Positions 25,497 to 48,579 of a DNA stretch of 64,000 nucleotides are shown here, piece after piece. The notes under the pieces are model-generated. The model made no database searches and was not told the origin of the DNA. It was given only the letters and a program-made list of their open reading frames with translations. Position 1 is the first letter of the stretch. Each line of letters begins with the position of its first letter. The position numbers and the translations under genes were made by a program. Source of the DNA: a virus (lineage: Duplodnaviria; Caudoviricetes); the IMG/VR virus record IMGVR_UViG_3300025389_000010, positions 128,001 through 192,000 of that record; one strand, 5' to 3'.

Positions 25497-25570
25497 TGGT
25501 AGGAGATAACGGTAACGCTCCGCTGAATCCTGAATGTAAATCAGGTGTTTTACTTTTAAACTAATCTCCC
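25497..25570 (-). tRNA. trnV: tRNA-Val(TAC)
   Basis: Cloverleaf; anticodon arm CCTGA-TTTACAT-TCAGG; CCA encoded; non-canonical T-loop AGCGTTA. Confidence 0.85.
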
Positions 25571-34410: not shown

Positions 34411-37400
34411 TCAACGAGCTTTTGTATATATCGTAGCTACGCTTGTACCAGCTGTTATTGTAACAAGATTACCAGAAGTTGTTACAGATCCACCAACTTG
34501 CCCAGCATAATACTGACCCGCTATCGTAATACTAGCTGTTCCGTTAGCTCCCGGATCATTACTGTATTTCGATGGAACATTAGTACCGGGATACAACGTG
34601 AAGGCATCACCACCTGAACCCGTACCATTACCTTGACCACTTGGACCTGATTGATTACTTGCGCCTCCGCCAGTAGCAGTATCCTTTATTACATCATTAA
34701 CACTTATATTACTAGATCCTCCACCAACACCATCACTACCAAGATAATTACCAATCTGTGGGGCCGAACCACCTTGACCACCAGCACCTGCTTGTATTTT
34801 TATATAATCACCAGCACGTATTTTAAGAGAACCGCTGCTAGTTGCTCCCGCACCACCACCATTCCCGTTTTTATAATTACCATTAAAGTCAAATTGACCT
34901 TTACCGGCACCACCACCGCCACCAATTAATGCATAATCAATATTAAAAAATACAGGTGTTAATGTTGGCGTTTGTGTTCTTGTTTGTGTTGGTGTTTGTG
35001 TTCTCGTTTGGGTTGCCGTTGGTGTCGTTAGAGGTAAAGCTGCTCCAGCACTTTGGTTATATAAATTATATAAATAAAGTTCGTATATATATTTGATTTC
35101 ATCATCAGATAAACCTTTGTTATATATGATCGCCTCGTCTATAAGACCAGAAAGATTAGTACCAATGATTGGATAAAAGAATTGAATAGGTGCAGCAACA
35201 TCTTGATTATAAAATGTCGCTGTTAAAACTATCTGACCATCTAAATAAATATAAACATATGAACCTCTTCTAACCATAACAAGATGATGCCAAGTGTTAT
35301 TTGTTATTTGTTGTGCGAAGTTACTAATGGAATTACCTCCTATAATTGCTGATAAGCTTCCACTTGAATTATATGATATTTGATAAGTATCATCACGTGT
35401 TCTAAATATTCCAGCAGAGGAGCTATTATTATAAACTTTAAACCAGAAACAAACTGAAAAATCACCAACAAAAGAAATATTATCTCTTGTTATTAAATTA
35501 GATTTAGGATCGTATGAACACGCAACTGCGTTATCACCAGTAAGTCCTGATCTTCCAGCATTAGGAACAGAATATGCTTGTAGACTATTAAGATTAGAAG
35601 AAGTAAATAATGTATAATTGCTATTTACCGAATTATACCAAGGTCCATATTGGGCATTTTCATTAAATGTCCAATATGCCACAGCATTACTATTATCAAA
35701 TATTGATACTGTTATTTTAGGTATAACCGCAAGTGATCTTGCTCCTACGTTACCATTGCTGTTAATCTTTGAAGTGGAAACAAGATTACCTGTAATCGCA
35801 TTAACAAAATACATATAATAGTTACCCGATCCATCTTTTCCTAAACCAAAAACATAAAGATCTTGAATTGTTGTTTTTGATATTTTAAAAATATTTTGAT
35901 TAAACACATCAACTTTCAGATTTAGATTTGTGTCAAAAAGCATGGTTGGCGTTGAACCGTTTATACCATAAGAATTGCTAACATCATAACATGTAACATG
36001 CCCACTGACTGTAGAACCATCAGTTCTTAATATATAAAGTCTATCACCTTTTGAATTTAATAAAATTTTAGAATTAAAACCAGTGGCACCGGAAATTACT
36101 TTATATTTGAAAGTATATTGATTATCTTGACCGATTCTATTACCAGATTTGTTATATTGATACAAATTACCATTATTTGAATACAACCAAATTACGTCTC
36201 TATTAGGATCAACAGCAAATGTATCTATTCCATCATCAAATGGATTAAAACCACCAAAAGAAGCAGACCAGACAAAATCCGTTGAATCTATAGGCGGTAA
36301 ATAATTTCCACCACCAACGGTAGTTTTAACTTTTGTTAAACGATAATCGTTACCAAAATTAGAAAACACATATATTGCGCTTAAACTTTGACCTGATGTT
36401 GTTAAATCATTTGGATCAACAGCCATATCTTGTGGATTGTGGGACAATAAACTACCCAAAACACCAAAATTGTTACCATTAAATGTATTAGTTAATATAT
36501 TGTATTCTACTATACCATTTAAATATGCGATATAAAAATATTTATAGTCTGGTGAAAATTTACATAAGCAATCATCGTAACGTTGAAAAGGATTAAAATA
36601 AGCAGGAGATATTGAAATAGTATTTGAATATAAAAGATTATAATTTGGATCAACGTTATATATTTCAATAGCACCACCTGATGAATTAACAGCATCAACT
36701 GTCACAACCCATATTTGATTTCTATCAGCATTGTATTCAAGCGTTGCAACATAATAATTTTTATTATTATTATAATTTTTTAATGATACTAATAATGAAT
36801 TTAAATTGAATTCTGTGATGTAATCATTACCTGTATTTGAACTACCATCAGGTAAAATTGAAACAAGAGAACCTTCTAATTGTGGAACAGGTGTCGGTGT
36901 CGGAGTCTGTGTAGGAGTTTGAGATGGTGTCTGTGTTTGAGTCTGTGTACGTGTTTGAGTCTGTGTACGTGTTTGGGTCTGTGTTTGAGTCTGTGTAGGA
37001 GTTTGAGTCCGTGTCGTTGTAGGAGTTTGTGTATAAGTAGGAGTCTGAGTTTGAGTCTGAGTTTGTGTTTGAGTCTGTGTCTGTGTTTGAGTCTGTGTAC
37101 GTGTTTGAGTCTGTGTACGTGTTTGAGTCTGTGTTTGAGTCTGTGTAGGTGTGTTTGATGGTACGGGTGTATTGGTTCTTGTGGGTGTTATAATCGGTAC
37201 AGGAACAACGTTTGATGAATTATATATTGTTAATTTAGATGATCCTCTTAAATCGTATCCTGAATTTACGGTTTTTATAATAGGATTTTTTACAGACGGA
37301 TCAGTTGACATGTCTATGGTATAGACATGTCCATAATTTATTAAATAAGCATAATCAAAAACATTTGTAGTTTCTAAATTATAATATTCTGTGGATTCTG

Positions 37401-40400
37401 CTATTAATGGAAATGTTTTGGATTTGAAAAAATTTGATATCCCCGTTGATGGATTATATTTGATATCAAATACGATTAATTCACATTTATAATCAGTATC
37501 AGCATTAAAACTAACAGCATATAAATAAGAATAACCACCTATTAATGAATATGTAAATGTGCTACCATAATCATTAATCGGTATATCTGTAATTGTTGGC
37601 GTTGATGTCGTGCAATCTATTTTTGTTATTTTTTTATTACCATATATAGCTGTATTATAAAAACCGTAGGAAACATAATATATATTATTGTTATTCAAAT
37701 CTCTTATGATTTTTCCACCAGTTGATTTAAACGGTAATGTTACATATGAATTTGAATTTGGTGTATATAAAAATACACTATTACTTGCAGAATTAAGAAA
37801 ATCAAAAGAAGAACAAATTACCGTATTGTCATCATAATTAAAATTAAAATATGGTGGAGATGAACCATCTAATGTTGATGGATAATTGTAACTAATTTTA
37901 TTAATATTGGCGGATGGACCAGAGATAATACTGTATGGTACATACGGTATATTATTACTTCCGTTTGTTAAACTCCATGTGTTATCCAACACGTAAAAAG
38001 CACCGGCATTATTACCGGGTACTGCATATGCAACATATATGTATGGATGATTTTTATCATATGGATTATATGCAATATCTAATATTTGATAATTAAATGG
38101 AAATTGAGGTGAAATTGGGTTTGTACTTGGATCAAATAAACACATTTGTCCCAAGAATGAAAGTGTGTTTAGGTCATATATTAAAACACATGCAATAGAA
38201 ATACCCGGTGTTAAAATAATAATAGTATCATTAAATATAAGATTAATAGAATTTGCTGTATTGTTTGTAAAGTTTACAGCTGCCAATATTTGTTTATTTG
38301 CTTTATGTACTGTTACAGATGTTATTTTTGGTGTAGCATCTGAATTACCTACAGTAATAACAGGATCAATATTTATAGATCCAATTAAAGGATCTCTTCC
38401 ACCACTAACACCAATACCCGATAAATTAGGATCAATTATTTTTATATTTTTATTATCTGTATTGATAATAAATTCATCCGGTATAACAGAAATATCATTA
38501 AAAACACTTTGTATAGAAGGGACATCGCCTGTAATTTGTTTTAAATCAAAACTAACTGAATTAATTTGACATATATTCCTAATTGTATCAGCAGATATTA
38601 TATAAAAATATTTGTTATCATTTGAAATTTTTATATCAGTAACATAATTTTGAGGAGACCCACCAAAACCAGTATTAATAGGAAGAGTTTGTATTGCTAT
38701 TATTGGTGGTAATATGTTTGGATTATTCGTTAATAAAGGAACTGTTGGATACCCGCTATCTGTTAAATTTAAAATTTTAAAATTTCCATTTACTAAAGCA
38801 TATGCAAGTTTTAATTTTTTATCATTTGGGTCCGTATACAATAATTGTGAATGTATTATGCGGTCTCCTCCTGTGATATCAGGATTATATGAAACTGTGT
38901 TTGATGACGTAACATTATTAATATAAATTATTCCCCCATAATAGCTTAGGAATATATCAGTTGTATTATTGGAAAGATTACTATATATTTGAATTTTACC
39001 TCTAGTAAAACCCGAATTAGTAATACTAAATGATTTATTATAAATAAAGGAAATATTTGAAGAAGATGACCATATTTCATATATTAAAGTAGTATTACCG
39101 GAACTTAAATTAAAATTATAATAATAAACAATTAAATTATCAAAAGCATCAACTCCCATATCTTCAAAATTATTATTACTAAAAAGAGTAGGATTCGTTT
39201 CAATCCCAGTATTACTACTACTAAATTGTAACAATGATGATTGGTCGTTTACAATATCATATTTTATTATACCAGCAAAACCTGAATTTGTCTCAACAGC
39301 AAAATATGCAATTGTTGCTTCATTATTAAACACTATTTTTGTTATACCATAAGTTGAATTAAACCCTTGTTTAAAACTATCACCATAGACTAATTTTTTG
39401 ATAAGTTCTTTTGTTCTGATGTCATATATGTTTACCTGTGCATCATACGGAAAAGTATTAGTATTAGTTCTAAAAGCAACATACAAATATGTATTTGATG
39501 GGTCTACTGCTGAATAAAAACCATATTGTCCAACAGGAGAACCAGAAGCAGGAATTTGTTTTAAAAAAAGAGAAGGATCACCATAAGAACCAGCCTCAAA
39601 ATCATTAATGTAAAAACCATTAACACTATCTACGTGTAGTAATGGTGGAATAGAAGTACTAGATGGTGTTACTGATGGTGTCTGTGTAGAAGTTTGTGTA
39701 TTCGTTGGTGTTTGAGTTTGGGTGCGTGTAGGAGTTTGTGTCTGAGTTTGTGTTCGTGAAGGAGTTTGAGTTTGAGTGGATGTCTGTGTAGGAGTCTGTG
39801 TTTGTGTAGGAGTTTGAGTTTGTGTTGGTGTTTGTGTATATGTTGGCGTATTTGTTTTTGTAGGAGTTTGAGTTGAAGTTTGTGTCTGTGTAGGCGTTTG
39901 AGTGTTTGAAGGAGTTTGTGTAACTGTGGGTGTTTGTGTAACACCTGCTGTACTTGAAGCCGTATTTGTAGGAGTTTGAGTTTGTGTCTGTGTAGGAGTT
40001 TGAGTTGAAGTTTGTGTTCTGGTAGGAGTCTGTGTGTTTGAAGGAGTTTGTGTAACTGTGGGTGTTTGTGTAATATCCGGTGTACCTGACACGGTATTCG
40101 TAGGGGTTTGCGTTTGAGTACGTGTAGGAGTTTGTGTTTGTGTTTGAGTACGTGTAGGAGTTTGAGTTGAAGTTTGTGTCTGTGTAGGGGTCTGTGTGTT
40201 TGAAGGAGTTTGTGTAACTGTGGGTGTTTGTGTAACACCTGCTGTACTTGAAGCCGTATTTGTAGGAGTTTGAGTTTGTGTTCGTGAAGGAGTTTGTGTT
40301 TGCGTTTGAGTACGTGTAGGAGTTTGAGTTGAAGTTTGTGTCTGTGTAGGAGTTTGAGTTGAAGTTTGTGTCTGTGTAGGGGTTTGAGTTTGAGTTTGAG

Positions 40401-43400
40401 TTTGAGTCTGTGTTTGAGATAAAGAAAGGGTCGGTGTAGCAGTTGGTGTCGTTAATGGTAATTCCGCCACACTATCTCTTTGATATAAAGAAAAAACATC
40501 CACATCAGTTAAGCCAACATCCCATACGATTGCTTCGTCTATATACCCATTGAAACTGGAACCTGAATTAGTATCATAATAAAAGAAATTAAATGTATCT
40601 GTAAAATTACTTGAAAAACCATAAGGTCCGCTAATAAGATTACCATTTAAATAAAAGTTAACGTCTGAACCGTTTCGGGTTATAACCGCTTGATACCAAA
40701 CAGCTACTGATATTGGTGCCGATGTTATCACAATGTTATTAAATGCAAAATTTAAAACACCATTTAATGCATAAATTTGAATATCACCGTTTCCAGTTTT
40801 AAATAAACCACCACTATTATGGGCATTTGAAATATAAGAATTAAACCAAAAAGAAAAAGTAAAATCACCATTTAAAGGAACTGTATCTTTTGTAGACAAA
40901 AGTGTTTTTTGATTACTTGAATTATTAAGAGTATTAAAAACAGAATTATTTATTTTTCCAACACCAGAACTATTTACTAAAACATTTGGTAGATTTACAT
41001 TATCATTATATATTGTATAATCATTACTAATAGAATTATACCAAGGACCAGCATATGTTGTTGTTTTTATAAACGGTTCGTCAAAAGTCCAGTATGCTAT
41101 AACACCAGATAAAATATTTGGTAATGTTTGAGTTAAAGTTGGTGTTTGTGTTTGTGTTAGTGTATTTGTCGGTGTTGGTGTTCTGGATGTTGTACTTGTC
41201 TGCGTATTTGTGTTTGAAGGAGTCTGTGTTTGTGTGTTTGTAGGGGTCTGACTTTGAGTTTGTGTAACTGTTGGAGTTTGCGTTGCTCCCGCTGTCGGTG
41301 TTCTTGTTTGAGTCTGTGTTTGAGTTGGAGTCTGTGTGTTTGTTTGTGTAGCTGTTGGTGTTTGTGTATTTGACCTAGATGGTGTTTGTGTTTGTGTTAC
41401 TGTATACGTTGGAGTTGCCGTTTGTGTTACACTTGGCGTTTGTGTGCTTTGTGCGGTACTGGTTACTGTATTTGTTGGTGTTTGTGTATATGTTTTTGTC
41501 GGTGTTTGTGTTTGTGTGGGTGAATTACTCTGTGTGTTTGTCGGCGTTGCAGTCTGTGTATTTGTCTGAGTTTGAGTAACAGATGTTGTAGGTGTTGGTG
41601 TTATTAATTCTGCTCTGGCTTTATTATACTCATATAACCATGTAATATCAGCATCAAGAAGAACTTTTTTCCAAATTATTGTTTCATCGATATAACCATA
41701 AAATCTATAACCAAATGAAAATCTTTGATTTCCCGAAAAAGTTTGATTTGAATATGAAAATTGCTTTTGACCGTTTACAAAAATACTAACATTACCATTT
41801 TGCAATGTTATTACAAGATTTTGCCAATATAATGTTGGATCTGTTGGGCTTGTTGTGAAATAATAATATTGAGGCGAAAGCGAATTATTAAAGTATATTT
41901 TTAAAGCAGGAGAAGCACCACCAACAAAAGATACATTAATGAAATTAGGTGAATTACTAGAAGACGGATAATTTGAAATAATTGTACCACTTTGTGAAGA
42001 ATCTGTTACTTTAAACCAAGTTGATATCGTACATATTGCATTAGCTAATGTATTGTCAGGACTTATTACTACTGGATCATGTGTGTCTAAATAACTTGTA
42101 CCGGAAAATACAGCGGCACCGTTTCCTATTACATTTGTACCTATGAATCCTGTTGTACTTGTAGAATCATCATACAACGGATAGTTTCCGGTTAAATCAT
42201 ATCTTACGCCTCTCTGTTCATCAAACGTCCAATATGCAATAATGTCTTGATAAACTTCAGCAGGATCTGATGTTGGTGTTATCGTTTGGGTTGGTGTTTG
42301 GGTTTGAGTTGGTGTTTGGGTTTGAGTTTGACTCGGAGTAGGTGTTTGCGTTTGTGTATTAGATGGTGTCGATGTTTTTGTTTGTGTCGGTGTACCGGTT
42401 TGTGTTCTAGAAGGAGTAAACGTTTGTGTCTGTGTCTGTGTCTGTGTAGGAGTTTGTGTTTGTGACGGAGTCTGCGTTTGAGTCTGTGTAGGAGTTTGAG
42501 TCTGAGTAGCAGTCTGGGTTGGAGTACCTGTTTGTGTAATAGGAGGAGTGGGCGTATTTGTAACAGTCGATGTATTTGTTTGTGTATTTGTATTTGTAGG
42601 AGTCTGTGTTTGTGTTGTCGTCTGCGTTGACGTAACGGTATTTGTAGGAGTCTGTGTTTGAGTTTGAGTTTGTGTCTGTGTAGGAGTCTGTGTTTGAGTT
42701 TGAGTTTGAGTCTGTGTAGGAGTTTGTGTTTGTGATGGAGTCTGTGTTTGTGTCTGTGTTTGAGTTTGAGTGGGTGTGTTTGTTTGTGTAACTGCCGGTG
42801 TAGGAGTATTTGTAACAGTTGAAGTATTTGTAGGCGTGTTTGTATTTGTAGGAGTTTGCGTCTGTGTCTGTGTAGATGTTTGAGTTGCCGTAACAGTATT
42901 TGTGGGAGTCTGTGTTTGAGTTTGCGTTTGAGTCTGCGTTTGTGTTGCTGTCTGAGTCGCAGTCTGAGTAGGCGATTGCGTTGGTGTTAATGTATTTGTA
43001 GGAGTTGGTGTACTTGTTTGTGTAGGAGGAGGAGTGGGTGTACTAGTAACCGTTGCCGTGTTTGTAGGCGTATTTGTCGGTGTACCCGTAGCAGTTTGGC
43101 TAGGAGTTTGAGTGTTTGTCGGTGTACCTGTTTTTGTGGGAGTATTCGATCTAGTCGGTGTTCTTGTTTGTGTACTTGTAGGTGTTGGTGTTAATGGTGT
43201 AGTTGTTGGTGTTATGGTATTTGTCGGTGTATTTGTTGGTGTTTTTGTGGGCAACGCGATACCGTAAATATCCGTATAAACAATCGGACTTCCAAGACCT
43301 GTTACGAAATCATATCCTTTTACGCTTGGCAAAGGATTGCTTCCTGATGTTATATCATTGTAATAATTGCTATAGTTATCAGCAGCAAATTTATAAAACT

Positions 43401-44424
43401 GTGCAAGTACACCTTGTGAGTTAAAATATAAATTACCGTATGTTGCTTTTCTTGCTAACAATGCTGCCCACTGTGGCGCACCTGCGCTAGTACCACCAAC
43501 ACTAATCCAACCGTTTTGATTTGTAAAAGGATCTGTAAATTTAACAGCAACATAAGCACCGGCATTATATGCAACATCGGGTACACCTCTTCCCGAATAA
43601 ATGTTAAATCCCTTTTGAAAATCAGGTACTGGATTTATTTTGCTATATCCACCACCGCTATAACTCCATGCTGTTTCTACAAAAGGACCGGTATTATTAT
43701 TATAATTTTGTGCATTTCCACCCGATAAGACCGTGCCACCAACGCCTATTACATAATTTGATGATGCTGGATAATTGACTTCCTCACCGTTATCACCGGA
43801 TGATGCAACGAAAACACAACCTTTGTTTTTAAAGACTGTATCATCAGTGCTACCAGAATTAAAATAAAAAATATCTTCTGGACCACCAAAACTCATTGAT
43901 ACGATTTTTGCACCTAATGTATCAACTGCATATTGAACAGCTGCAAATAAATTAGCTGAACTACTATCTTGTGCAACGACAACGACAATATTAGCTTTTG
44001 GTGCCATTGCGTATGCATATTGAACATCAAGTGATGTTTCAATTGCCCAATGTGTTAAATTGTCTACTTGATTAACTGGTACATTGTCCCAATCAGTTTG
44101 GCCTTGTGGATAATAAATGGTTATTGTTTTATTAGGTAATCCAAATTGAGAACAAAAATCATTAAAATCTTGTTGTAAAAACTTGCTACCGTATGCATCA
44201 ATTATATAAATCGTTTGACCTTCGCCTTGTTGCTGTACCTGATCAAAACCATAATAAGAAGAAAGTTGTGAAGGTAAAAGAAATTCTCCGTTTAAACTAC
44301 CAGCCATTGGTATAAACCCAATCGGCTTTGGTGGTGTGGAACCACTAAGAGCAGAACCTTCTGTTTTTGTTAAAGGGTTATACCAATGTAAAAAAGGATT
44401 AAGATTTCCTACAACATTGCTCAT
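34411..44424 (-). CDS. 3337-aa protein: S53 (sedolisin/kumamolisin-like) peptidase, Thr/Gln/Pro-rich linkers, three LamG-like domains, beta-rich regions, Gly-rich C-terminus
   Basis: ETSLDVQY, SMSFG, ASSGDNG, RGVPDV, GGTSAGAP, GYDFVTGLGSP; three AYWTF.E...DE..I LamG units; TQTPT repeats. Confidence 0.85.
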   Translation of the reverse strand: MSNVVGNLNPFLHWYNPLTKTEGSALSGSTPPKPIGFIPMAGSLNGEFLLPSQLSSYYGFDQVQQQGEGQTIYIIDAYGSKFLQQDFNDFCSQFGLPNKTITIYYPQGQTDWDNVPVNQVDNLTHWAIETSLDVQYAYAMAPKANIVVVVAQDSSSANLFAAVQYAVDTLGAKIVSMSFGGPEDIFYFNSGSTDDTVFKNKGCVFVASSGDNGEEVNYPASSNYVIGVGGTVLSGGNAQNYNNNTGPFVETAWSYSGGGYSKINPVPDFQKGFNIYSGRGVPDVAYNAGAYVAVKFTDPFTNQNGWISVGGTSAGAPQWAALLARKATYGNLYFNSQGVLAQFYKFAADNYSNYYNDITSGSNPLPSVKGYDFVTGLGSPIVYTDIYGIALPTKTPTNTPTNTITPTTTPLTPTPTSTQTRTPTRSNTPTKTGTPTNTQTPSQTATGTPTNTPTNTATVTSTPTPPPTQTSTPTPTNTLTPTQSPTQTATQTATQTQTQTQTQTQTPTNTVTATQTSTQTQTQTPTNTNTPTNTSTVTNTPTPAVTQTNTPTQTQTQTQTQTPSQTQTPTQTQTQTQTQTPTQTQTQTQTQTPTNTVTSTQTTTQTQTPTNTNTQTNTSTVTNTPTPPITQTGTPTQTATQTQTPTQTQTQTPSQTQTPTQTQTQTQTFTPSRTQTGTPTQTKTSTPSNTQTQTPTPSQTQTQTPTQTQTPTQTITPTSDPAEVYQDIIAYWTFDEQRGVRYDLTGNYPLYDDSTSTTGFIGTNVIGNGAAVFSGTSYLDTHDPVVISPDNTLANAICTISTWFKVTDSSQSGTIISNYPSSSNSPNFINVSFVGGASPALKIYFNNSLSPQYYYFTTSPTDPTLYWQNLVITLQNGNVSIFVNGQKQFSYSNQTFSGNQRFSFGYRFYGYIDETIIWKKVLLDADITWLYEYNKARAELITPTPTTSVTQTQTNTQTATPTNTQSNSPTQTQTPTKTYTQTPTNTVTSTAQSTQTPSVTQTATPTYTVTQTQTPSRSNTQTPTATQTNTQTPTQTQTQTRTPTAGATQTPTVTQTQSQTPTNTQTQTPSNTNTQTSTTSRTPTPTNTLTQTQTPTLTQTLPNILSGVIAYWTFDEPFIKTTTYAGPWYNSISNDYTIYNDNVNLPNVLVNSSGVGKINNSVFNTLNNSSNQKTLLSTKDTVPLNGDFTFSFWFNSYISNAHNSGGLFKTGNGDIQIYALNGVLNFAFNNIVITSAPISVAVWYQAVITRNGSDVNFYLNGNLISGPYGFSSNFTDTFNFFYYDTNSGSSFNGYIDEAIVWDVGLTDVDVFSLYQRDSVAELPLTTPTATPTLSLSQTQTQTQTQTQTPTQTQTSTQTPTQTQTSTQTPTRTQTQTQTPSRTQTQTPTNTASSTAGVTQTPTVTQTPSNTQTPTQTQTSTQTPTRTQTQTQTPTRTQTQTPTNTVSGTPDITQTPTVTQTPSNTQTPTRTQTSTQTPTQTQTQTPTNTASSTAGVTQTPTVTQTPSNTQTPTQTQTSTQTPTKTNTPTYTQTPTQTQTPTQTQTPTQTSTQTQTPSRTQTQTQTPTRTQTQTPTNTQTSTQTPSVTPSSTSIPPLLHVDSVNGFYINDFEAGSYGDPSLFLKQIPASGSPVGQYGFYSAVDPSNTYLYVAFRTNTNTFPYDAQVNIYDIRTKELIKKLVYGDSFKQGFNSTYGITKIVFNNEATIAYFAVETNSGFAGIIKYDIVNDQSSLLQFSSSNTGIETNPTLFSNNNFEDMGVDAFDNLIVYYYNFNLSSGNTTLIYEIWSSSSNISFIYNKSFSITNSGFTRGKIQIYSNLSNNTTDIFLSYYGGIIYINNVTSSNTVSYNPDITGGDRIIHSQLLYTDPNDKKLKLAYALVNGNFKILNLTDSGYPTVPLLTNNPNILPPIIAIQTLPINTGFGGSPQNYVTDIKISNDNKYFYIISADTIRNICQINSVSFDLKQITGDVPSIQSVFNDISVIPDEFIINTDNKNIKIIDPNLSGIGVSGGRDPLIGSINIDPVITVGNSDATPKITSVTVHKANKQILAAVNFTNNTANSINLIFNDTIIILTPGISIACVLIYDLNTLSFLGQMCLFDPSTNPISPQFPFNYQILDIAYNPYDKNHPYIYVAYAVPGNNAGAFYVLDNTWSLTNGSNNIPYVPYSIISGPSANINKISYNYPSTLDGSSPPYFNFNYDDNTVICSSFDFLNSASNSVFLYTPNSNSYVTLPFKSTGGKIIRDLNNNNIYYVSYGFYNTAIYGNKKITKIDCTTSTPTITDIPINDYGSTFTYSLIGGYSYLYAVSFNADTDYKCELIVFDIKYNPSTGISNFFKSKTFPLIAESTEYYNLETTNVFDYAYLINYGHVYTIDMSTDPSVKNPIIKTVNSGYDLRGSSKLTIYNSSNVVPVPIITPTRTNTPVPSNTPTQTQTQTQTRTQTQTRTQTQTQTQTQTQTQTQTQTPTYTQTPTTTRTQTPTQTQTQTQTRTQTQTRTQTQTQTPSQTPTQTPTPTPVPQLEGSLVSILPDGSSNTGNDYITEFNLNSLLVSLKNYNNNKNYYVATLEYNADRNQIWVVTVDAVNSSGGAIEIYNVDPNYNLLYSNTISISPAYFNPFQRYDDCLCKFSPDYKYFYIAYLNGIVEYNILTNTFNGNNFGVLGSLLSHNPQDMAVDPNDLTTSGQSLSAIYVFSNFGNDYRLTKVKTTVGGGNYLPPIDSTDFVWSASFGGFNPFDDGIDTFAVDPNRDVIWLYSNNGNLYQYNKSGNRIGQDNQYTFKYKVISGATGFNSKILLNSKGDRLYILRTDGSTVSGHVTCYDVSNSYGINGSTPTMLFDTNLNLKVDVFNQNIFKISKTTIQDLYVFGLGKDGSGNYYMYFVNAITGNLVSTSKINSNGNVGARSLAVIPKITVSIFDNSNAVAYWTFNENAQYGPWYNSVNSNYTLFTSSNLNSLQAYSVPNAGRSGLTGDNAVACSYDPKSNLITRDNISFVGDFSVCFWFKVYNNSSSAGIFRTRDDTYQISYNSSGSLSAIIGGNSISNFAQQITNNTWHHLVMVRRGSYVYIYLDGQIVLTATFYNQDVAAPIQFFYPIIGTNLSGLIDEAIIYNKGLSDDEIKYIYELYLYNLYNQSAGAALPLTTPTATQTRTQTPTQTRTQTPTLTPVFFNIDYALIGGGGGAGKGQFDFNGNYKNGNGGGAGATSSGSLKIRAGDYIKIQAGAGGQGGSAPQIGNYLGSDGVGGGSSNISVNDVIKDTATGGGASNQSGPSGQGNGTGSGGDAFTLYPGTNVPSKYSNDPGANGTASITIAGQYYAGQVGGSVTTSGNLVTITAGTSVATIYTKAR
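39902..40281. repeat. Exact 86-bp direct repeat (39902-39987 / 40196-40281) inside the Thr-rich linker
   Basis: Identical nucleotide blocks; partial third copy near 40032-40072. Confidence 0.85.
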
Positions 44425-46667: not shown

Positions 46668-46703
46668 AAAAAAAGGACTAATAAATTAATATTAGCCCTT
46701 TTT
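46668..46703 (-). terminator. Terminator downstream of tmRNA
   Basis: AAAAAGGGCTAATA-loop-TATTAGTCCTTTTT on the minus strand. Confidence 0.75.
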
Positions 46704-46707
46704 AAAT

Positions 46708-47159
46708 TGGTGGAGGCGAGGGGAGTCGAACCCCTGTGTTTAATGTTGAGAAGTATATAATCTTCACATGTTTGGACAAACTTCGTACTTTGGTTGTCTA
46801 AAGGTAACGAGGTGTTGTCAACCTATCCATGTTTAGAGACCTACCTGTATGTGTGATTAACGACCACATACCACCGCTTGCACTTATTTTCGAGTGTCAC
46901 AAGTCCCACTCAACCTATTATGATTTACCAAAGGGATTAATAGGATTACCTTTGGTCCTTATGCTGCGAGGAGGGTCTCTTCCTCGTAACCACAGAGGAA
47001 CTCTGCGGCGTTGTTGAGGATATAGTCTGCTTCAGCTAAGATAGCATCAGTATTATCTTCTGCGTTTATTTGTTTCGATCAGCTTTTAAGGTAGCCAACT
47101 GATCAACTACCACATGCATACATAACATCTAACAATTAAGTCGAAGCCAGTACGCCCCC
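46708..47159 (-). ncRNA. ssrA: tmRNA (452 nt) with a 34-codon tag reading frame at 47063-46959
   Basis: 5' GGGGGCG / 3' CGCCTCC-A-CCA acceptor with G3:U70; TTCGAC 5' motif; GGTTCGACTCC T-arm; resume ATAAAC-GCA; tag ends LLAA*. Confidence 0.95.
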
Positions 47160-47220
47160 AAAATTATTTATCAAAGATCTATATAAATCTTATAACAAAA
47201 ATTATAAAAGTCAACAAAAA

Positions 47221-47265: not shown

Positions 47266-47505
47266 TTAGGCGAATGATATGTTTCCGCTTGAGATAATTT
47301 CAGTAGCTCTTGCTAAAACAGAGTCATTCGACCATTCACCAGCAGCGGTATATTCCTGTTCACCTTGCCAAAGGACGATTCCACGAGGAATGCCTTTGAT
47401 TCTGGCTATAATCTTTTTTTCTAAAAAAAGATCTCTAACTGTTTCTACAACAATTTTATCAATTGTTATTGATTGTGAATTTTGTAGGTTTACGGTTATT
47501 GACAT
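47266..47505 (-). CDS. Small protein, paralog family A
   Basis: VRDLF.EK.IIAR.KG.PR.IVLW.G..EY.AAG.W.NDS shared with 47518-47757. Confidence 0.7.
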   Translation of the reverse strand: MSITVNLQNSQSITIDKIVVETVRDLFLEKKIIARIKGIPRGIVLWQGEQEYTAAGEWSNDSVLARATEIISSGNISFA

Positions 47506-47517
47506 AACATTTTAAAT

Positions 47518-47757
47518 TTATGCCCAAGGAATAGCCGAAAGAGAAAGAACCTGAGTAGCTTGTGCAGTAGCTGAATCATTTGTCCAGTTACCAGCAGCAG
47601 CATATTCAGTTGCACCACTCCAGAGAACGATTGGTCTTGGGAGACCTTTTACTCTGGCGATGATTGTCTTCTCTTGAAACAAATCTCTGACAGCGAGTAA
47701 TTCTACTGCTGAGAGAGATACCGTCTGTTCAGGTTGTGTTACGACATTTATGCTCAT
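47518..47757 (-). CDS. Small protein, paralog family A
   Basis: Tandem paralog of 47266-47505. Confidence 0.7.
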   Translation of the reverse strand: MSINVVTQPEQTVSLSAVELLAVRDLFQEKTIIARVKGLPRPIVLWSGATEYAAAGNWTNDSATAQATQVLSLSAIPWA

Positions 47758-48255: not shown

Positions 48256-48579
48256 TTATGATGACACTTTTGTTGGTGGAATAGAAGGTTTTGGAAATAA
48301 AGCTAATATGCTCTTTTGAATATCATCATTTGTTTTTCCCAAAAGTTCAGTAATTCTATTTTCAACATCAGTATCGGTAAATTGACCAGCTTGTGTATAT
48401 GTTGGTGTTGTATTTGGACCCCATAAAAGAAGGCTTACGTTTGCTCCTTTAATAAAAGCAGTTGCTGATTTTGAATCATAAGTTATTGACCAATCAATAT
48501 TGTTTAACACAATCGGTGTAATTGGTTTTCCGTTAACTGGATTAGGTGTTAATGTTATTGGTGATGTTAATGTTATCAT
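48256..48579 (-). CDS. Small protein, distant member of family A
   Basis: AFIKG...LLLWG...YTQAGQFTD. Confidence 0.6.
   Translation of the reverse strand: MITLTSPITLTPNPVNGKPITPIVLNNIDWSITYDSKSATAFIKGANVSLLLWGPNTTPTYTQAGQFTDTDVENRITELLGKTNDDIQKSILALFPKPSIPPTKVSS

Follow-up and report, generated by a model that had tools for sequence, protein, structure and literature searches.

The tag encoded by tmRNA is a textbook minimal degradation signal, and the tmRNA genes of phages have so far been regarded as mere duplicates of host genes whose role is to supplement ribosome rescue. The locus described here raises the question of what a phage might gain from a tmRNA whose tag has 34 residues, roughly three times the usual length. 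The gene lies in a window of 64,000 nucleotides, bases 128001–192000 of IMG/VR record IMGVR_UViG_3300025389_000010. The complete record (225,756 bp; 100% complete according to CheckV; G+C content of 32%; 17 tRNA genes) encodes a gp23-type major capsid protein that is ~35% identical at most to that of any isolated phage, the nearest being those of cyanomyoviruses. The phage has a capsid of this type but stands far from the isolates, and therefore represents a deep, uncultured T4-like lineage. Phage tmRNAs as such are already known, from the mycobacteriophage Bxz1 group, Bacillus phage G, the OM43 phage Melnitz (a two-piece form), pelagimyophages and huge phages (PMC4131195, PMC9004378, PMC7162821). 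Our phage resembles these in that its large, lytic-type genome contains an entire ssrA gene beside many tRNA genes, but none of the three papers on them reports a long phage-specific tag (PMC4131195, PMC9004378, PMC7162821). A literature search covering sources other than subscription journals likewise returned no paper that describes such a tag.

To establish the identity of the gene, we ran cmscan with the Rfam model RF00023. The match covered model positions 1–374 of 374 and spanned exactly 46708–47159 on the minus strand, with a score of 93.3 bits (gathering score of 47) and an E value of 4.7e-35. A preliminary description, made from the sequence alone, had proposed an intact tRNA-like domain with G3:U70 and CCA, and this is borne out by an acceptor stem of seven pairs, a UUCGACU T-loop and a 3′ ACCA. 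The G3:U70 pair is the alanine identity pair. The outcome with ARAGORN was divided: the default run made no call, whereas a relaxed threshold recovered the RNA but returned ‘Tag not identified’.

A secondary structure consisting of the acceptor stem, T-arm, H2, PK1, H5, PK2, PK3, an extra hairpin and PK4 was proposed and scored against 18 aligned tmRNAs from related phages, with controls in which the pairing partners were slid by 1–3 columns. Standard pairs occupy 75.1% of cells, compared with 42–46% in the slid controls, and the covariation score is 0.281, compared with 0.131 or less. The observed values were reached by none of 500 shuffles on four of the five measures and by 5 of 500 on the remaining one, further pair types. 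In each of the 18 relatives, the acceptor stem has all seven pairs, with an invariant G:U at pair 3. The T-stem, of five pairs, is paired in 100% of cells, and two of its pairs show compensatory changes; H2d is also paired in 100% of cells, and the middle of H2 is poorly aligned across the 18 relatives. Stem 2 of PK1 exhibits double-sided changes at all seven pairs. In the 3′ pseudoknot ring (PK2–PK4), 52–78% of cells are paired and compensatory changes are found, with some stems poorly aligned; within PK2, stem 2 is paired in 78% of cells and stem 1, where the alignment is poor, in 52%. H5, the only proposed helix within the tag frame, is weak (59% of cells). These observations strongly support the assignment of 46708–47159 (minus strand) in this T4-like phage of 226 kb as the gene for a one-piece tmRNA that looks functional. 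The features of the locus are collected in Table 1.

Table 1. Features of the tmRNA locus, in window coordinates; nt numbers count from the 5′ end of the tmRNA.
Feature	Coordinates	Strand	Basis
Sigma-70-like promoter, TTGACT - 16 nt - TAAGAT	47187..47214	-	Consensus scan, 9/12 matches; consensus match only
GATAAATA, T4-late-promoter-like motif	47165..47172	-	5 nt before mature tmRNA 5′ end
tmRNA gene, one-piece type, 452 nt	46708..47159	-	Rfam RF00023
Acceptor stem 5′ strand, nt 1–7, including G3 of G3:U70	47153..47159	-	Pairs with 46712–46718
PK1, nt 49–53/66–70 and 56–62/77–83	47077..47111	-	93% and 88% of cells paired
A-rich single-stranded leader ending UAAAC, A at -4	47064..47076	-	A at -4 invariant in 18 relatives
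Tag frame, 34 codons from resume codon GCA	46962..47063	-	Register as in E. coli, conserved open frame
Tag stop codon UAA	46959..46961	-	Sequence
PK2, nt 205–211/226–232 and 216–222/240–246	46914..46955	-	Pairing in relatives
PK3, nt 249–253/264–268 and 257–260/280–283	46877..46911	-	74% and 58% paired, compensatory changes
Extra hairpin, nt 289–295/307–313	46847..46871	-	87% paired, 7/7 pairs changing on both sides
PK4, nt 315–319/353–357 and 323–328/358–363, inner hairpin 336–339/347–350	46797..46845	-	70–75% of cells paired
T-arm, nt 425–441, with 3′ acceptor strand, nt 442–448, and ACCA	46708..46735	-	Sequence, pairing
Intrinsic terminator right after CCA end	46670..46703	-	14-pair stem, then T-run

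The promoter motifs and terminator that the preliminary description had assigned to the gene were found again, as a sigma-70-like promoter at 47214–47187 and a terminator hairpin at 46703–46670. The preceding gene is itself ended by a hairpin and T-run at ~47244–47215, upstream of the tmRNA. With its own promoter, its own terminator and a terminator closing the preceding gene, the tmRNA would therefore constitute a separate transcription unit. A second motif, ATCTTTGATAAATA (47165–47178, minus strand), contains GATAAATA and stands in the same place in 6 of the 17 family loci examined, those that share the position with the window being L016, L013, L041, L061 and L036; degenerate versions are present in several more of the 17. 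ATCTTTGATAAATA looks like a T4-type late promoter, placed for a start at or near G1 of the tmRNA, which suggests late expression in infection.

The length of the tag depends on where translation resumes. In the Rfam alignment, the GCA at 47063 occupies the position of the E. coli resume codon, with UAAAC-GCA in the phage matching UAGUC-GCA in E. coli. The A at -4 is the equivalent of A86 of E. coli tmRNA, the main frame-setting base (PMC2481249). The frame that had been proposed for a 34-residue tag (47063–46959) is thus the one read here, in the canonical register and with a conserved coding pattern. Among well-aligned pairs, pN/pS of the tag is 0.19–0.38. In the first 13 codons, the eight closest relatives differ at codon positions 1, 2 and 3 in 63, 27 and 119 cases, respectively, amounting to 94 synonymous and 68 non-synonymous codon differences, and all four synonymous Ala codons are used at one Ala site. 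In the last third of the tag, the same comparison yields 60 synonymous and 149 non-synonymous differences. The tag is most constrained over its first two thirds and least so at its C terminus, the opposite of the pattern in canonical tmRNA tags. Moreover, every indel among the relatives is in frame and a multiple of three, and no in-frame stop was seen within the tag among the related phage tmRNAs. The register and substitution pattern strongly support the conclusions that translation resumes at GCA (47063), adding a 34-residue tag, and that the tag peptide is under purifying selection.

Aligned across the family, the tags can be divided into a polar head resembling A-E-D-N; a core built around a near-constant Asn-Asn-Ala-x-Glu-Phe, with hydrophobic flanks at helical spacing; and an acidic stretch followed by a hydrophobic-Ala-Ala tail. 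The window tag ends in LLAA directly before the UAA and so has the L-A-A-type end of a ClpXP degron. The C terminus varies in the family; most members keep hydrophobic-Ala-Ala, and several are without Ala-Ala. The E. coli ssrA tag is bipartite, with an SspB-binding head and a ClpX-binding LAA tail. The phage tag is similar in that a polar head precedes a hydrophobic Ala-Ala tail, but here the two are split by ~24 conserved helical residues. This middle segment is amphipathic and helix-prone, and in the window phage it is acidic. The hydrophobic moment of residues 5–26 exceeds that of shuffled sequences (p of 0.005–0.056) in 16 of 17 tags, which come from related groups, and Tyr, Phe, Ile and Leu lie on one face of the amphipathic helix. 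Weak evidence for helices in the free tag peptide is also provided by an AlphaFold2 model computed with the tag alignment, which predicts them at residues 5–17 (pLDDT of ~85) and 19–32 (~55), with a mean pLDDT of 74.

Amphipathicity of the helix is conserved, whereas charge is not: the net charge of the tag is -9 in the window phage and ~0 in a sister subgroup whose tags are basic in their N-terminal half. This lack of conservation argues against one shared electrostatic partner. A Cys in the segment, which had been singled out as a feature, is not conserved in the tag alignment. An internal duplication of a 14-residue unit was also considered and rejected, as self-similarity at an offset of 14 is not significant in the window tag or its relatives (p of 0.4–0.8). 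When all ORFs of the window phage were searched with a profile of 18 tags, the tag was the single match. Searched against 1.84 billion protein representatives, the tag profile returned 25 matches, all of 29–97 residues and all ending in the match. Several of these proteins begin with the translated 5′ end of a tmRNA, which indicates that they are gene-caller ORFs running through tmRNA genes; these spurious ORFs add ~20 further tags with the same core. A core borrowed from a protein family was therefore rejected, none having been found among the 1.84 billion representatives apart from such read-through ORFs.

The distribution of long tags was assessed by scanning IMG/VR with each end of the tmRNA and with a pattern specific to the tag, which yielded 34 distinct full-length viral tmRNAs. 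The tag type of the window is present on at least 36 other IMG/VR contigs and in 19 distinct versions, of which 17 are complete (32–34 residues; exactly 34 in 12 cases) and two are cut by the end of the locus. Further phage groups have tags of 30–36 residues. The T4-like phages with a gp23-type capsid comprise eight related records of 185–225 kb and one 119-kb fragment. Two other long-tag carriers, L006 (158 kb) and L063 (200 kb), are without a gp23-type capsid, and long tags therefore occur in more than one phage lineage. In L063 (5033–5464), the tag has 35 residues and a similar acidic, Ala-rich helix. L006 belongs to a second group, with tmRNAs of ~405 nt and tags of 30–31 residues (L006, L007, L010, L012, L023, L027, L044, L050, L057 and L060), that shares a short Glu-Ala-Asp-Ala-Ile-Leu-Ala-like motif with the window tag. 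The scans also returned a viral tmRNA with a strongly basic 31-residue tag (L237:5241–5676) and another of just 308 nt with a Pro-rich tag of 35 residues (L263:3382–3689). None of the isolate phages among 50,697 records carries the tmRNA of the window; the sole match was a 33-nt 3′ end in Caulobacter phages.

ARAGORN in its default mode detected 6 of 18 family members and read the tag correctly in 4. It was the tool used in two of the studies of phage tmRNAs (PMC9004378, PMC7162821), and a 2014 survey relied on its own tFind.pl pipeline (PMC4131195). Because ARAGORN misses most of the family, the phage tmRNA counts in these two studies are likely to be underestimates.

It had been suggested that the long tag might mirror the tag of the host lineage. 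We therefore compared the phage tmRNA with bacterial ones, beginning with a set defined by an exact 27-nt 3′ end (at least 120 genomes from several phyla, a sample biased to that end). About 105 other bacterial tmRNAs with this 3′ end have tags of 8–15 residues where the ARAGORN call is plausible. With an nhmmer profile of the phage tmRNAs, the best 18 matches were all from Verrucomicrobiota, at 86–137 bits, compared with 80 bits or less for Clostridia, and the 5′ homology to Verrucomicrobiota tmRNAs spans the first four tag codons. When the alignable parts were used for a maximum-likelihood tree, a split with support of 98/94 joins 19 long-tag phage tmRNAs and 19 from Verrucomicrobiota, against 73 others. 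The window’s group forms one phage clade (99/84), and L063 nests separately within Verrucomicrobiaceae, beside Prosthecobacter (97/87), which points to repeated expansion of the tag or to recombination. As the T4-like clade, L063 and the ~405-nt group stand apart in the tree, similar insertions may have arisen repeatedly.

The likeness to SsrA of the Verrucomicrobiota type (Akkermansiaceae, Verrucomicrobiaceae and Chthoniobacterales) extends to the G3:U70 stem, T-arm, PK1, resume register, 3′ pseudoknots and ACCA. The two share an identical 27-nt 3′ end, and 109 nt at the 5′ end, the four tag codons included, can be aligned. Descent of the phage RNA from a Verrucomicrobiota-type tmRNA is thus strongly supported by these shared features and the tree. 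By contrast, the phage RNA is longer (452 nt versus 345–404 nt), contains an additional hairpin between PK3 and PK4, comes from a phage without an SmpB gene and encodes 34 tag residues rather than 9–21. The latter figures come from a Verrucomicrobiota sample in which 137 of 151 genomes have a tmRNA (345–404 nt); tags, read for the 12 longest of the 137, are of 9–21 residues and unrelated to the phage core. Because of these short tags, the suggestion that the phage tag mirrors its donor lineage does not hold. What does resemble the donor tags in the phage tag is its two ends, with a head of the form A-acidic-x-N (AEDN-like) and a tail of the form L-x-A-A (LAA-like); the long middle is not shared, and its ~24 helical residues have no counterpart in the bacterial samples (at least 120 genomes sharing the 3′ end; 137 Verrucomicrobiota tmRNAs). 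The longest tags of the phylum sample, of 19–20 residues and ending in LLG, come from two very small Verrucomicrobiota genomes of ~0.9 Mb, L286 and L289; these tags are likewise unrelated to the phage core. At 32%, the G+C content of the phage is much below that of most Verrucomicrobiales in culture, and the present host may therefore differ from the donor lineage.

Which proteins could act with the phage tmRNA was examined next. No smpB is present in any frame of the window, as had been stated at the outset, and the search of the whole 225,756-bp record, also in every frame, gave the same result. Likewise, ClpP, SspB, ClpX/ClpA-type AAA_2, Lon (Lon_C) and S41 tail-specific protease were not found in the phage record, SmpB was absent from all 10 related phage records and a sample of 101 Verrucomicrobiota genomes yielded no SspB. 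A ClpP-family gene, the product of which may be a prohead protease or one that acts on tagged proteins, is present in 2 of the 10 related records (G156:C1:94394–94888 and G157:C1:17931–18332). A tblastn comparison of 11 flanking ORFs with all collected loci revealed no gene that travels with the tmRNA, and the small ORFs flanking it had no match in Pfam or PHROGs. The alanine identity pair, together with the absence of a phage SmpB, implies that host alanyl-tRNA synthetase would charge the phage tmRNA and that host SmpB and EF-Tu would bring it to stalled ribosomes.

These features can be assembled into a mechanism. The tag keeps a short, donor-like head (AEDN-like) and the LLAA tail, with an acidic amphipathic insert of ~24 residues between them. 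The LLAA end would pass tagged proteins to a host ClpXP-type protease, and the helix would dock a host or phage factor or act as a hydrophobic degron of the Lon type, altering the rate or route by which the infected cell clears the products of rescued ribosomes. The timing is likely to be late, at the stage of infection that produces very large virion proteins; truncated products of very long proteins, such as that of a 3337-residue ORF in the window, might need disposal. We are highly confident of the part of this account that can be read from the locus itself, namely that the tmRNA is intact, has alanine identity, depends on the host and templates a selected 34-residue peptide. That the helix is a second recognition element, one that binds an adaptor or a protease (a Lon-type degron included), is a tentative proposal. 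As a whole, the account of an intact tmRNA, a 34-residue tag and a helix that serves as a second recognition element is the best explanation we can offer, and we lean somewhat towards it. The added core is conserved beyond the degron and was found in phages only, which argues that the phage gains something specific from the text of the tag, and long-tag phages probably alter the fate of proteins from rescued ribosomes. More broadly, a widespread, phage-only tmRNA family could reprogram the outcome of rescue through a helical tag module with a partner other than ClpXP alone, an idea that we advance with reserve; rescued chains would then go to another protease, to a factor of phage or host origin or into sequestration.

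A different view of the same helix is that it is not a degradation signal and instead neutralizes or sequesters truncated proteins, for example by keeping incomplete virion proteins out of assemblies. In a variant of this idea, the helix docks to a phage factor that commits the protein to another fate, and the C-terminal degron is secondary or dispensable. Such a function would fit a core that is more conserved than the C-terminal end and the several family tags that are without an Ala-Ala degron end, although the canonical hydrophobic-Ala-Ala end is kept in most members, the window tag included. The phage encodes very long virion-type proteins (the 3337-residue ORF), truncated forms of which could poison assembly, and the tmRNA is closely preceded by a late-promoter-like motif; however, no partner was found among the flanking genes or among phage ORFs with the tag core. 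We know of no precedent for a tmRNA tag with a non-proteolytic function of this kind, and we consider the possibility doubtful.

The second recognition element could also be read by one particular enzyme. In this case, the long tag would be a degron directed to host Lon, which would read the hydrophobic and aromatic face of the helix instead of, or besides, the reading of the tail by ClpXP. T4 inhibits Lon by means of PinA, which counts against a Lon reading in a T4-like phage, as does the ClpX-type end that the phage tag retains. The window tag helix, one side of which displays Tyr, Phe, Ile and Leu, speaks for it, and a precedent is found in Mycoplasma, where the 27-residue tag is rich in hydrophobic and aromatic residues and is read mainly by Lon (PMC8403727). 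The Mycoplasma tag thus resembles that of the phage in its unusual length and its hydrophobic and aromatic residues, and it shows that length can change protease specificity (PMC8403727). However, it is bacterial and chromosomal and occurs in hosts without ClpXP, whereas the phage tag is strongly acidic and has a ClpX-type end; the likeness is one of length and aromatic residues, with no sequence relationship seen. Accommodating the precedent and these differences, we regard Lon as an improbable reader of the phage tag.

Both of these alternatives, like the reading with a second recognition element that we prefer, assign a function to the peptide. The additional 72 nt could instead act as RNA, as a spacer between PK1 and PK2, a structure or a protein-binding site, with the peptide being incidental. 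Tag length stays at 30–36 codons across groups that have just 25–40% peptide identity, and in one lineage the gain of a codon is compensated by the loss of another so that the length is still 34, as might be expected if length itself were selected. Nevertheless, substitutions fall mainly on third positions and are synonymous, the indels are all in frame with no in-frame stop in any relative, and H5, the sole proposed helix inside the frame, is paired in only 59% of cells; we therefore regard a purely RNA-level function as very improbable. Finally, a resume codon further downstream, which would give a tag of normal length, merits almost no credence: it would agree with the later start that ARAGORN guessed at the relaxed threshold, together with ‘Tag not identified’, but is excluded by the alignment of the UAAAC-GCA register with UAGUC-GCA of E. 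coli, by Verrucomicrobiota 5′ homology that runs through the first four tag codons and by a synonymous signature that is strongest in codons 1–13, which shows that selection acts on the peptide from the first codons onwards.

The long tag with its conserved core gives a handle on two questions: how large phages deal with late translation failures, and what determines the routing of ssrA-tagged proteins. A further use of the conserved helix could be as a new portable tag for degradation or targeting.

Several minor observations were made in the surroundings of the tmRNA. The 3337-residue protein is encoded by a single ORF at 34411–44424 (minus strand), ~2 kb downstream of the tmRNA. Upstream, two adjacent ORFs of 79 residues each (47266–47505 and 47518–47757, both on the minus strand) are clear paralogues, and a third ORF (48256–48579, minus strand) has their central motif; none of the three has a match in Pfam or PHROGs. 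A tRNA at 25500–25570 (minus strand) is recognized by Rfam at 51 bits and is absent from the ARAGORN list, and its inclusion raises the number of tRNA-like genes in the window from 12 to 13.
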